Assembly (NCBI GenBank): GCA_050951325.1
Contig: JBMNIW010000012.1
Location: 224,001-288,000, forward strand
Direction: 5' to 3'
DNA length: 64,000 nt
Source: Clostridia bacterium
GTDB taxonomy: Bacteria > Bacillota > Clostridia > UBA1212 > DUPL01
The notes beneath the pieces were generated by a model, which saw nothing but the letters and a program-made list of their open reading frames with translations, had not been told where the DNA came from and made no database searches. Position 1 is the first letter of the stretch; each line of letters begins with the position of its first letter. A program made the position numbers and the translations under genes. Shown in pieces: positions 4,448-8,602 of this stretch.

Positions 4448-6205
4448 ATGGCATACTTTTTACGTAAAGATAAAAGAAAAAATGGTTTATATCTTCAAAT
4501 GTACGAAAATTATTGGGATAAGAATTTGAAACAGGCAAGAACAAGACATATTTGTTCCTTCGGATATGTTGAGGATCTTGTTTCCGACGATATTCCTGAT
4601 CCTATTGCATATTACACCGAGGTCGTTAGGCAGAAGGAAATTGAGCGTAAAAAAATGCTAAATGAGGATATGCGTCCAAGAGCATTTGGGGATTGTGTTG
4701 AAAAAAATGTTGGATATTTCCTGTTCCATTCCTTGATTGAGGAACTTGAGGTCAAGGAAGTAATAGATATTCTCGCCTCTGTCTGTAAGTTTCGTTTTAG
4801 TGTTTACGACCTGCTTACCCAACTTATCTATTCCAGGATCATATGTCCTTGCTCGAAATCCAAGACTGTTTCGGATGTTTTCCCACTCTTGTATCGGTAT
4901 TCTCCGATATCTGAAGACCAGGTTTATGACGGACTTTTCTTTATTGGCGGATCCTATAAGAAGTATATAGAGTTATTTAACAAACAATACGAGAAGTTCT
5001 ACAAAAGAAACTACAATAGAGCTTATTTTGATTGTACGAATTATTACTTCGAGATAGACTTTCCGAAGGATGACAAGCAGAAAGGTCCTTCAAAAGAAAA
5101 TAGCAAAAACCCCATCATTGGGCAGGCTATGCTTCTTGATTCGGACCTTGTTCCGATTAGTATGCAAATGTATCCGGGAAACGAGTCCGAGAAGCCATAT
5201 ATAAGGAAAATAATCGAAGAGATGAAGCAGAAATACAATGTGACCGGTAAGACTGTTCAAATTGCAGACAAGGGGCTTAACTGTGCCCGTAACATATATG
5301 CTGCCGTTGTAGAGGCTAATGACGGATACATCTTTTCAAAAGCCATTAAAGGCAGAAAACTAAGCAAGAAAGAGAAAAGTTGGATCCTGCTAGAGAATCA
5401 AGACAATGTATTTACCGATTATACAGATGCTAAGGGAAACTTGTTATACCGCCTGAAGAGCTGCGTTGATACTTTTGAATATTCCTTCGAAGAAACTGAT
5501 CCTGATACCGGCGAGAACAGGAAAATCACTTTCTCGGTAAAAGAAAAGCGCGTAGTTTCATACAATCCATGCCTTGCAAGGAAGCAGCAGGCTGAGATAA
5601 AAAAGATGGTAGACAAAACTCTCAACTACGTTACCCATAAACAGTTGGTAAAAGAAGAGATAGGAGATGCTTCAAAATATTTGAAAGTCACCAACAAAGA
5701 CAAACACGGCAGGAAAATTGAGCCTATAATTGAAATAGACACAGCCAAAGTTGAAGAGGACATGAAATTAGCCGGGTACAATCTTATTGTCACATCCGAA
5801 ATCGACATGACGCCGAATCAGATATACGAGGCATATCACGGACTATGGAAGATTGAAGAGAGCTTCCGAATCTCTAAATCCTATCTTGACGCAAGACCTG
5901 CTTATGTACAAAAGCAAGAAACAATTTACGGGCATTTTCTTATATGTTACCTTAGTTTGTTTCTTTTACGTATATTGGAAATTAAGTGTTTCAAAGACAA
6001 AGTTAATGCCTATGACATCATAACATTCATACGTGACTTCAGAGTCGTGAAGAAGGATGACAACACGTACATAAACCTTTCCCGCAATCGAAGTGCTAAT
6101 GAAAAGATTAAGTCTGTTACTGGGATCAATGTATTGGATGCTCTGTACTTAACAGAACGAGAACTTGACAATTTATTTGATTCTACTATCCTAATCGACT
6201 ACTAA
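4448..6205 (+). CDS. IS1634-family DDE transposase
   Basis: YFDCTNYYFE, GPSKE, YPGNESE, IADKGLN and YHGLWKIEESFRISKS...GHFLICYLS motifs; GGAGG RBS. Confidence 0.95.
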   Translation: MAYFLRKDKRKNGLYLQMYENYWDKNLKQARTRHICSFGYVEDLVSDDIPDPIAYYTEVVRQKEIERKKMLNEDMRPRAFGDCVEKNVGYFLFHSLIEELEVKEVIDILASVCKFRFSVYDLLTQLIYSRIICPCSKSKTVSDVFPLLYRYSPISEDQVYDGLFFIGGSYKKYIELFNKQYEKFYKRNYNRAYFDCTNYYFEIDFPKDDKQKGPSKENSKNPIIGQAMLLDSDLVPISMQMYPGNESEKPYIRKIIEEMKQKYNVTGKTVQIADKGLNCARNIYAAVVEANDGYIFSKAIKGRKLSKKEKSWILLENQDNVFTDYTDAKGNLLYRLKSCVDTFEYSFEETDPDTGENRKITFSVKEKRVVSYNPCLARKQQAEIKKMVDKTLNYVTHKQLVKEEIGDASKYLKVTNKDKHGRKIEPIIEIDTAKVEEDMKLAGYNLIVTSEIDMTPNQIYEAYHGLWKIEESFRISKSYLDARPAYVQKQETIYGHFLICYLSLFLLRILEIKCFKDKVNAYDIITFIRDFRVVKKDDNTYINLSRNRSANEKIKSVTGINVLDALYLTERELDNLFDSTILIDY

Positions 6206-6254
6206 GGTACTATGTTTTGAGTTGAACGACGGAAGTCAGGTGCTAAGTATAAAA

Positions 6255-6283
6255 ATAATAACGTATTTTTCCAGTGATGTCAA
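6255..6283 (-). promoter_or_regulatory. Orphaned sigmaA promoter of pilA
   Basis: Minus strand TTGACA (6283-6278)-17 bp-TATTAT (6260-6255). Removing the IS places the start site ~80 nt upstream of the pilA ATG. Confidence 0.75.
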
Positions 6284-6622
6284 TACTTCTTTTATAATCT
6301 TAGCAAAAAAATTTAACTAATTTTTCACAAAAAATATATTGTTTTTACGTTTTAATTGTTTTGTTGTTCACTTATACACAAGCAATATTAGTAAAACTGG
6401 CAAAAAAAATATATACATACCATAAAAACTATCATACCCACCATCCCGTAAACTGAGTCCGAGTTTATCTTTAACTTGGACTCGCTTGCTTTCTATAACA
6501 GGATGTCTGTTTAGGCTATCTTTAGTTAGCGTAAAGATTCTCTAGGTTTGTGACAAAAAAAGTAAAGCCCCTCAATATGTTATAATATATTTGTGAAAAT
6601 AAAACAAGGAGTGAGCTTTACT

Positions 6623-7960
6623 ATGTATAGTATAACACAAGCAGCAGAAAAATTACTAGAGGAAATTTTTAAAACTAATATTACCGAGGGATTAACGAGC
6701 TCTATTTATCATTTATATGCTTCATTCGATGAGTTTGTACGAACATTTTTGTCATCTAAATTGAATGAGTTGGATCAAGATATATTTAATAATCCTGATT
6801 GTCGAGAAGGCTGGAAAGTCGTCCATAAGGATGTCCCACGAACTATTCAGTGTAGGTTTGGACCATTATCATATAAAAGAAGGTACTATAGACATAAAGA
6901 AACAGGGGTAACACTGCACTTAGCGGATGTATTAGCTAAAATTGATAAAGGAGACAGAATAGAGAGAGGACTCGCGTTAACCCTTACAGAGTTAGCGACA
7001 GATAATTCATATGAAAAAAGCTCGAAAATAGCCTGTAACAATCATGTTTCACGGCAAAGTGTAATGAAAAAGACTAGAGCAGCGAAGAATTATGAGCTTG
7101 AGAAAGAACCTGAAAGAAGAGAAGTAAAAGAGATACATATTCAAGTTGATGAAGATCATGTTGCGATGCAAAACGGAAAGAGTTCAATTGTAAAACTGGC
7201 TGTTGTCCATGAGCCTAGAAAGCAAATTAAAAGCAAAGCCATTTTACCTAATAAGATGCATTTTGCTAGCCATAAAGATAAACCAGAAGATTTTTGGTGC
7301 AAAGTGTCAGAGGGCATTATTGAGCGATATGGCAACCGCGATGACTTGAAGGTATACATTCATGGCGATGGTGCATCCTGGATAAAAACAGGACTAGAAT
7401 GGATTCCTAATAGTGTCTTTATACTTGATCGGTTCCATGTACATAAATACATAAATAAACTTAACGACTTCAAATATATCAATCAAACATGGCAATATTT
7501 GCGTCGCGAAAACTACAATGATTTAAAAGTGTTTTTATACACGCTAGTTGCTAATGATGAGATAGATGAAAAGACAGGAAGCGAAATATATAGCTATTTA
7601 AGGAATAATAGAGAAGGGATTAAGAATTTATTGACTCTGCCACCTAATACTGTTAAATCATGTGCAGAAGGGTTAGTAAGCCATGTTTTGTCTGATAGGT
7701 TAAGTAGAAAACCGCTCGCATGGAGCGCAGAAGGATTAGAAACAATTACTCAGCTAAGGATGTATTTGCTTAACGGAGGAGCGCTCGAAGAAAAGCATTT
7801 TGTGCAGACAAACCCATCGGTAGAAAAGCATAAATCAAAGGTAATTGAGATGCGTAAGCGTCTAGCTCCGCCTACTTATTATATGAATTTTGATATAAAT
7901 AAATATATACCGCGAAAAAAAGACAATAAGTTCCTTAAATCGCTTGCACATATTTCTTAG
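6623..7960 (+). CDS. ISLre2-family transposase (UPF0236)
   Basis: RTIQCRFGPLSYKRRYY, IQVDEDHV, HGDGASWIK, LDRFHVHK and SCAEGLVSHVLSDRLSRKPLAWS motifs. ATG 6623 follows an AAGGAGTG RBS. Confidence 0.93.
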   Translation: MYSITQAAEKLLEEIFKTNITEGLTSSIYHLYASFDEFVRTFLSSKLNELDQDIFNNPDCREGWKVVHKDVPRTIQCRFGPLSYKRRYYRHKETGVTLHLADVLAKIDKGDRIERGLALTLTELATDNSYEKSSKIACNNHVSRQSVMKKTRAAKNYELEKEPERREVKEIHIQVDEDHVAMQNGKSSIVKLAVVHEPRKQIKSKAILPNKMHFASHKDKPEDFWCKVSEGIIERYGNRDDLKVYIHGDGASWIKTGLEWIPNSVFILDRFHVHKYINKLNDFKYINQTWQYLRRENYNDLKVFLYTLVANDEIDEKTGSEIYSYLRNNREGIKNLLTLPPNTVKSCAEGLVSHVLSDRLSRKPLAWSAEGLETITQLRMYLLNGGALEEKHFVQTNPSVEKHKSKVIEMRKRLAPPTYYMNFDINKYIPRKKDNKFLKSLAHIS

Positions 7961-8000
7961 TTGTCTTTAATGGAAATTTAAAACGTCCGAGTAAAGGCGA

Positions 8001-8445
8001 AAATGCTTATATTCAACGTCTGATTGCATTAAATAGATATCAAAATTTTGTTTGTCTTTATAGCCACTTCTATATGTGGTTATTTTGGGCTACCAAAATA
8101 ACAATTGGCTTTTTACAGCTCAGTACTTAAACTCGCTAAATTCCCTCTTTGTATCAATTTTTAGCAGATGCTCCGAGATTGAATCTCTTAGGCATAGGAT
8201 GAGGGCGGGGTCTGATGTGCTAAAATGTTAATTAAAGGGCTCTTGTGGTTTTATCCTTGTATCAATCTTCCCTTCAGCCCGTCGATGCTCTCGTTTAGCA
8301 TATCAGAAGAGCCAAGTCAAGAGAAGAAACGAAGTGGCTCTTGACTTGGCTCTACCAACCGGACTTGAAGTAATGCAATGAATATGCTCTTGCAGGTTAA
8401 TTTACATCGTGATATACTGTAAGCATCACAAAGTATTAAGCATAT
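8001..8445. ncRNA. Putative large structured non-coding RNA in the ISLre2 3' arm
   Basis: No ORF of 60 aa or more. Nested stems 8009-8031/8371-8385, 8079-8088/8093-8102, 8211-8224/8294-8307, and a perfect 16 bp stem 8308-8323/8338-8353. Motif TTGTATCAAT occurs twice. Confidence 0.45.
8390..8418 (+). promoter_or_regulatory. Outward-facing sigmaA promoter in the ISLre2 right end
   Basis: TTGCAG(8390)-17 bp-TATACT(8413) with extended -10 TG, pointing at the glycosyltransferase operon. Confidence 0.6.
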
Positions 8446-8602
8446 TTAAAGGGTCAAAAAAGCAGCTAATACTATATCCTTTAAACCTAGAAGAAAATGA
8501 CGCGGTCGTATTTACAAAAACGGTTGCTTGCATTAATATATATTAAACTGTGCTAATTCAAATATACATAAGATGTTTCACCATTTATCAGGAGGAAATT
8601 AA

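Follow-up and report, generated by a model that had tools for sequence, protein, structure and literature searches.

Insertion sequences are usually viewed as a transposase gene lying between two short ends. In the DNA analysed here (a stretch of 64,000 nucleotides, henceforth the window), the transposase gene of an ISLre2-family element is followed by a 547-nt tail (7961-8507) whose longest overlapping ORFs are of 51, 45, 39 and 35 aa, and the question raised by the locus is what this tail might be. A first-pass annotation had described it as a densely paired arm with a duplicated loop motif and had proposed an undescribed RNA encoded by ISLre2 elements, with a role as a guide among the possibilities. 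Our answer is that the tail contains, at window 8147-8365, a copy of a folded module of ~230 bases, conserved and specific to one strand, which is a portable accessory found inside the inverted repeats of elements from five unrelated transposase families and is kept under structural selection. Action as RNA and action as single-stranded DNA are both considered below, with the likelihood of each.

The carrier was identified by its transposase, which scored 244.5 bits against NCBIfam NF033529 (cut-off 200) and 222 bits against Pfam UPF0236. Since the inverted repeats of the window element were missed by an ungapped blind scan, the family end sequence was learnt from three multi-copy ISLre2 relatives, G206 (1543 bp, with 69 nt after the transposase stop), G048 (1776 bp, 211 nt) and G230 (1878 bp, 339 nt). 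The anatomy given by the first-pass annotation (transposase stop at 7960, an arm without any ORF of at least 60 aa, right inverted repeat ending at 8507) stands. Contigs from four metatranscriptome runs start at 6523-6525 and stop at 8507-8509, mostly at exactly 6525 and 8507, and have different flanks, so that the 1983-bp unit, arm included, must be present at several sites. No clean target duplication was found around the window element, the flanks of which differ; its relatives have duplications of 9-10 bp. A second copy in the same genome (L002, C12:747545-749054, corresponding to window 6976-8485) lacks both ends, beginning within the transposase gene and stopping precisely where the right repeat would begin, and its arm (C12:748530-749054) is 99.8% identical to that of the window. 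Just upstream of the element there is an IS1634-family transposase gene (window 4448-6270; NF033559, 300 bits), and window 6200-6270, which has an 86% match on contig C1, is probably the right end of that IS1634-family element. A terminator-like hairpin also lies upstream of the ISLre2 element, at window 6454-6484 and ~40 nt from its left end, and the element may have inserted directly behind a terminator.

Features of the ISLre2-family element and of the module in its 3' arm. Positions are those of the window; P1 to P4 are the helices of the structural model.
Feature	Position	Strand	Basis or remark
Complete ISLre2-family insertion sequence	6525..8507	+	1983 bp; ends from family terminal repeat and contig breaks
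Left inverted repeat	6525..6546	+	resembles left ends of relatives in G206, G230 and G048
ISLre2-family transposase gene	6623..7960	+	445 aa; NCBIfam NF033529, Pfam UPF0236
Non-coding 3' arm	7961..8485	+	no ORF of at least 60 aa
5' half of basal stem (partner 8371-8385)	8009..8031	+	fold of this copy only; not kept in ISNCY copy L003
Stretch homologous to 3' arm of same-genome ISNCY element	8060..8385	+	74% over BLAST core
10-bp terminator-like hairpin	8079..8102	+	consensus scan; not conserved
Core module common to IS21, IS256, ISNCY, ISLre2 and IS30 elements of other organisms	8147..8365	+	nhmmer and covariance-model matches
Loop motif copy 1 (TTGTATCAAT)	8149..8158	+	exact repeat
Conserved block, unit 1 (T-run, AGCAGATGCTCCGAG)	8158..8177	+	near-invariant in alignment A4 and distant members
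P2 5' strand (pairs with 8297-8307)	8211..8221	+	11 pairs, 96.8% paired, 3 changed on both sides
P3 5' strand (pairs with 8270-8274), tentative	8235..8239	+	93% paired, no double-sided change
Loop motif copy 2 (TTGTATCAAT), in P3 loop	8257..8266	+	exact repeat
Conserved block, unit 2 (CTTCCCTTCAGCCCGTCGA)	8267..8285	+	alignment conservation
P2 3' strand	8297..8307	+	covariation analysis
P4 hairpin, 16 bp, 14-nt loop	8308..8353	+	double-sided changes at the five outer pairs, in 6-9 of 23 sequences
Right inverted repeat	8486..8507	+	reverse complement fits family end sequence

The arm has a counterpart in the same genome. An ISNCY element (NF033594, 364 bits), with copies at C11:3574-5437 and on C3, carries the shared stretch between its stop codon and its right end, in the same orientation and in the same place relative to the gene, and retains both loop motifs, the 14-bp stem and the 16-bp hairpin. 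The latter two had been picked out from the letters alone: the perfect hairpin at 8308-8353 is present and conserved as P4, and the stem arms at 8211-8224 and 8294-8307 are present and 93% complementary. The ISLre2 and ISNCY versions of the arm are separated by indels of 1, 2, 7 and 19 nt; none of these lengths is divisible by three, which excludes a coding remnant, and a decayed gene, which the first-pass annotation had named as a possible trivial origin, is ruled out, no ORF reaching 60 aa. The ISNCY copy on C3 (L064 / L004) has an in-frame TAG in its transposase gene and is therefore probably inactive. Homologous ISLre2 transposases were found in 40 of 398 genomes of the class, at 36% identity or less, and homologous ISNCY transposases in 24 of the same 398, and nhmmer found no module in these ISLre2 and ISNCY transposase loci.

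The module reappeared in metagenomes, where a scan for the hairpin stem gave at least 119 contigs. Among those listed, nhmmer located the module in 36 (32 at 40 bits or more, 27 distinct sequences), most low-scoring model hits in the metagenome loci being the hairpin alone, as guaranteed by the search pattern. Six of the matches listed are near-identical to the window or ISNCY types and 26 are diverged. Directly upstream of the module, on the same strand, 23 of these 26 diverged loci have an istB-sized ORF, usually preceded by an ORF of 500-546 aa, and NCBIfam confirmed IstA and IstB in all five loci tested. Of the other three diverged loci listed, one is at the start of a contig, one is a truncated copy, and one is a derivative that has lost istAB but retains the module. 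In the metagenome IS21 elements the module is situated 127-318 nt inside the right end. Two side observations concern the same family: L092, an IS21 derivative without istA and istB, keeps its left end, module and right end, much like a non-autonomous element, and in six distinct IS21 copies (L122, L150, L108, L149, L166 and L154) a conserved ORF of 41 aa, provided with a strong ribosome-binding site, is found ~55 nt beyond P4; this ORF has no Pfam match and does not occur in the genome studied here.

To resolve the structure we aligned 23 sequences, namely the window, the ISNCY copy and 21 IS21 copies. The layout consists of a closing stem P1, an 11-bp P2 that encloses hairpin P3, and the long hairpin P4, in all 41 pairs. 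Both sides have changed at 14 pairs (71 cells), and the covariation score is 0.246 vs 0.108 in shuffles, none of 500 reaching it, while slid partners give 0.083 at most. Covariation across homologues, a check proposed by the first-pass annotation, is thus found, and the claim of an undescribed structured element with a duplicated loop motif is supported by it. Double changes affect five of the seven P1 pairs, three of the 11 in P2 and the five outer pairs of P4, and none in P3, one G-U pair of which is retained in 19 of the 23 sequences. Invariance of the inner 10 bp of P4 in this alignment is imposed by the pattern with which the sequences were collected and is uninformative; in a copy found by the covariance model (G072) the inner stem does vary, with compensation. 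The fold is also strand-specific: G-T wobbles number 57 on the + (transposase-sense) strand vs 10 on the - strand, and 883 of 939 cells (94.0%) are paired on the former vs 836 of 939 (89.0%) on the latter. When 8130-8390 is folded as DNA, neither strand has the advantage (z = -2.9 and -3.0).

Within this framework the sequence is organized as two pseudo-repeated units, in each of which the shared motif of 9-10 nt precedes an invariant block that is single-stranded (a T-run, AGCWGAT and CCYGAG in unit 1; CCCTTCA and then CCCTCGG in unit 2). P4 keeps a TCAAGG/CCTTGA-like core and exists in short, medium and long forms. Two further contacts were considered and discarded, a pairing of CCGAGG (unit 1) with CCTCGG (unit 2), which is conserved but shows no compensation and is broken in the window, and a K-turn in the P4 loop, rejected by eye.

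The arm is densely paired, as the first-pass annotation had it, and folds better than chance, the + strand of 7961-8490 folding at z = -5.1 (0 of 100 shuffles as good) and the - strand at z = -2.6. Several of the helices it had drawn are nevertheless particular to this copy. Both of its 'modules', the 8079-8102 hairpin of 10 bp and the basal stem (8009-8031 with 8371-8385) do appear in the RNA minimum-free-energy fold, but homologues have not retained the basal stem (in the variants of runs X18 and X16 one side alone is altered, stretches of the element uncovered in X16 being uninformative), the hairpin is absent from the ISNCY copy and the GCTAAA/TTTAGC stem is likewise lost among homologues. 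An inward promoter suggested on the minus strand is not confirmed, being neither listed by a consensus scan nor conserved. Natural variants of the element touch the core lightly: L002 carries 8217 G>A, by which a G-T pair of P2 becomes A-T, and a variant from run X18 with 24 letter differences and 11 gaps, almost all of them at 7837-8151 (from the gene end to the start of the core module), has a single core change, at 8217.

Distant members, missed by sequence-only nhmmer, were recovered with a covariance model that runs from P1 to P1 (168 positions with 41 pairs) and that matched in 6 of 149 other genomes of a class sample and in 23 of 149 genomes from the order of one class-sample hit. In the class sample the carriers are IS21 (G164 and G188), IS256 (G170, module 58 nt after the stop), ISLre2 (G105, twice) and an IS30-like element (G048, three copies, module ~115 nt upstream of the start codon); in G072 (L204, G072:C3) two diverged modules, inverted, flank two small ORFs (92 and 94 aa). 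Searches of Pfam and NCBIfam gave no match for the small ORFs beside the G072 and L228 copies. The 23 loci of the order sample comprise nine IS256, seven IS21, two ISLre2, two IS30 (module 5' of the gene) and one ISNCY, with two to which no family was assigned. Representative transposases scored as follows against curated cut-offs (in brackets): IS30 96.7 and 99.1 (80), ISLre2 260 (200), ISNCY 418 (250) and IS256 362 (150). The module is placed in the 3' arm in IS21, IS256, ISNCY and ISLre2 and in the 5' arm in IS30, and its orientation is that of the transposase wherever one could be assigned. In IS256 ~60 nt separate it from the stop codon, and in most IS21 copies ~30 nt or less.

It follows that the structure is not a feature of ISLre2, as had first been thought. 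The model matched in only 1 of 29 ISLre2 loci (~19 of which have downstream sequence sufficient to judge) and in 0 of 28 ISNCY loci from the other genomes of the class sample; these elements therefore transpose without the module, which is not a family trait. The main carriers are IS21 and IS256, with ISNCY and IS30 in addition. The forms of P4 do not track the transposase family (all three occur in IS21, two in IS256), and the sharing of hairpin variants by several families means that the module was exchanged between them and moved more than once. A nested MITE, the other trivial origin considered at the outset, was rejected: the arm has no terminal repeats or duplication of its own and no IS21 termini, the basal stem is restricted to the window, and no solo copies were seen among 32 metagenome loci. 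A blastn search with the window's module gave no match in plasmids, phages or 60 relatives, and a pattern scan of viral sequences gave 0 hits. The pattern made from the window's variant had two hits in a genome collection, both in high-GC contigs and with no other similarity, which we attribute to chance.

One part of the module does have plasmid relatives: in the long form of P4, the 65-75 nt at the apex are 74-83% identical to elements on 12 plasmid records, and with a Burkholderia copy as query the number rises to 101 records, all unannotated stretches of proteobacterial plasmids. The plasmid element, situated upstream of methyltransferase, DUF932 and similar genes, is the tip of a longer hairpin, the base of which covaries between two Burkholderia plasmids, and conserved T-G wobbles favour the same strand. 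Seven plasmid loci were inspected, and in all six that are annotated every adjacent gene is opposite to the folding strand; the adjoining genes code for a DNA methyltransferase (71-100 nt away), DUF932, ParB-like and antirestriction proteins, a DNA-binding protein with an exonuclease, and a replication function. The same gene-strand geometry characterizes the single-stranded promoters or priming sites (Frpo/ssi) of leading regions, as described in parts of PMC7736820 and PMC11541004. F-like plasmids were absent among the hits in 72,556 plasmid records, so the plasmid element is not of the F-plasmid type. A TTGAY box is conserved on the 3' arm of P4, with no -10 at the right spacing by eye, and Rfam 15 gave no match for five of the plasmid loci (E up to 1). 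The short P4 form of the window is devoid of the plasmid-like domain.

The duplicated loop motif noticed in the first-pass annotation is real. Within an element the two copies are near-identical, with a median longest shared word of 10 nt (range 4-16, 32 distinct elements) vs a median of 5 in pairs with different motifs, an imperfect control. Across lineages the motif varies, being TTGTATCAAT in the window, CTGTATCAC in most IS21 copies and CCGGCCTGC, AAGCTTGCT, GGATTTGCT or AACACTTAC elsewhere. Twin loops that are alike within an element and lineage-specific could in principle pair with a target or with the element ends, as in bridge RNA or omega RNA, yet we hold this guide role to be very improbable. 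Allowing one mismatch, the elements and ends of the ISNCY, IS256, two ISLre2 and IS30 copies contain no complement of the motif, only the motif copies themselves, and allowing two, the window element has only partial complements at chance level. The flanks in the four metatranscriptome runs contain none, the IS21 termini are unrelated to the motif, and the sole exact complement, at an IS256 locus, lies 37 nt outside the left end. The loops are thus without link to insertion targets or element ends, and an identical motif accompanies IS256, IS30, ISLre2 and IS21 transposases. The encoded neighbours are DDE transposases, with no recombinase or nuclease of the guided type. Pairing of the motif with the sequence after each unit was also considered; it suits IS256 and some ISLre2 and IS21 copies, fails in others and was set aside.

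Among the ways in which such a module could work we favour, with about even confidence, action as RNA, transcribed with the transposase gene and exerted via a host factor. The module would be a 3' untranslated domain in IS21, IS256, ISNCY and ISLre2 and a 5' leader in IS30, the host factor would recognise the invariant blocks, and the transposase transcript might thereby be controlled in its stability, processing or translation, or the module might be released as a stable RNA. This is suggested by the 41-pair structure, the covariation score of which was reached by 0 of 500 shuffles, by the wobble bias towards the sense strand (57 vs 10, with the G-U pair kept in 19 of 23), and by the invariable sense orientation adjoining the gene together with the 5'-leader position in IS30; presence of the module in contigs of six RNA libraries points weakly in the same direction, these being assembled contigs in which the strand is not resolved and DNA could be the source. 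Of the original proposal of an RNA encoded by the insertion sequence, the conserved, covarying structure is firm and the RNA nature is interpretation. Some facts sit awkwardly with an RNA: in the window the terminator-like hairpin 8079-8102 intervenes between gene and core, the consensus scan found no promoter or terminator belonging to the module, and the folding strand of the plasmid relatives is the template strand of the neighbouring genes in the six annotated loci, a placement more in keeping with a signal in single-stranded DNA than with an mRNA domain. Taken together, readings other than RNA and single-stranded DNA appear unlikely. Quite improbable in its own right is that the module is a passenger, selfish or neutral, or a site bound by protein as double-stranded DNA, spread between insertion sequences by recombination with no action of the folded strand; its presence in only 1 of 29 ISLre2 and 0 of 28 ISNCY loci of the other class-sample genomes and the hairpin variants common to several families would suit it, but compensatory changes in three helices and a strand asymmetry of wobbles are not expected of a duplex site, nor do the lack of solo copies (32 metagenome loci) and of ends or duplications of its own, or the IS21 derivative that kept the module when istAB was deleted, speak for it.

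Folded single-stranded DNA is a reading that we entertain tentatively. On this view the module would prime the lagging strand in the manner of sso/ssi/Frpo signals, recognised by host RNA polymerase or primase, and it would help to convert the sense strand to duplex when the element transposes replicatively ('copy-out') or when it has entered by conjugation or transformation. The kinship of the long-P4 apical domain with elements on 12 and then 101 plasmid records, the plasmid genes running opposite to the folding strand in Frpo/ssi geometry, and the T-G wobbles that favour the same strand all argue for it, as do the independence of the module from the transposase family and its cassette-like exchange. 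IS21, IS30 and IS256 form circles or tandem junctions, which would also agree with such a role. One difficulty is that in insertion sequences the folding strand is always transposase-sense, the reverse of the plasmid arrangement, so transcription or priming from the module would run antisense to the gene or, in IS30, out of the left end. Moreover, inspection of the stems by eye gave no place for a -35/-10 pair, the short form of the window lacks the plasmid-like domain, 8130-8390 folds equally as DNA on both strands, and blastn gave no similarity to other plasmids. A more ambitious version, entertained with the same reserve, is that of a portable single-strand-active module with a tip related to the T-strand signals of conjugative plasmids, which would prime or programme second-strand synthesis with a specificity set by the lineage-specific twin loops.

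Conserved, common to at least four other unrelated families and without a match among catalogued RNAs, the module looks like a new accessory part of mobile DNA, undescribed as far as our searches reach. A structured element of 230-330 nt, evidently exchanged, is here present in five transposase families of anaerobic-digester and related bacteria of the class Clostridia. If RNA, it would be a new class of transposon-borne RNA that is not bound to one enzyme; if single-stranded DNA, it would connect transposition to the biology of plasmid replication and entry, and should single-strand priming be true, no earlier signal for the lagging strand or for entry would be known in insertion sequences, and transposition would be tied to conjugative establishment. 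The twin loops and invariant blocks provide a testable handle on how mobile elements use host machinery, and for annotators the module is a marker of element boundaries.

Among known systems we consulted Rfam 15, as the first-pass annotation had advised, in which the window has no relevant match at E up to 10, nor seven IS21 loci and five long-form loci any match at E up to 1. Our full-text searches gave no description of such an element, the closest item in them being Ssr9, a small RNA downstream of the ISPpu9 transposase, as presented in part of PMC12288879. A Rho-independent terminator or 3' stabilising hairpin resembles the module in offering a long perfect hairpin soon after a gene; P4 itself is not a terminator because no T-run follows it (the consensus scan lists none there), and a ~220-nt multi-helix fold with invariant single-stranded blocks is unlike one. 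With the bridge RNA of IS110, the omega RNA of IS200/605 and Ssr9 it has in common that a structured non-coding element of an insertion sequence adjoins the transposase gene. The two loops of the module, of element-specific sequence, are reminiscent of the two loops of bridge RNA. Unlike bridge and omega RNA, the module occurs in five DDE transposase families with no IS110 recombinase or TnpB/IscB alongside, and its loops are identical to each other and without complement in ends or targets. Its resemblance to the single-strand origins (sso) of rolling-circle plasmids and ICEBs1 extends to a non-coding nature, imperfect hairpins specific to one strand, unpaired blocks that are conserved, and a cassette-like exchange, in their case from one replicon to another, unrelated one. 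From Frpo, in turn, it differs in having no detectable similarity to the F-type plasmids that bear it (72,556 records), the window copy being without the shared domain. Unlike Frpo/ssi as these are described in parts of PMC7736820 and PMC11541004, it resides within insertion sequences and on the transposase-sense strand, the template-strand placement being seen only in its plasmid relatives. With Frpo/ssi, to judge from the same parts of those papers, it shares a non-coding span of 150-330 nt, strand-specific imperfect hairpins and conserved unpaired blocks; the strand specificity is evident in its wobbles (57 vs 10 G-T) and pairing (94.0% vs 89.0%), and its long-form domain is similar in sequence to plasmid elements that are placed like Frpo/ssi.
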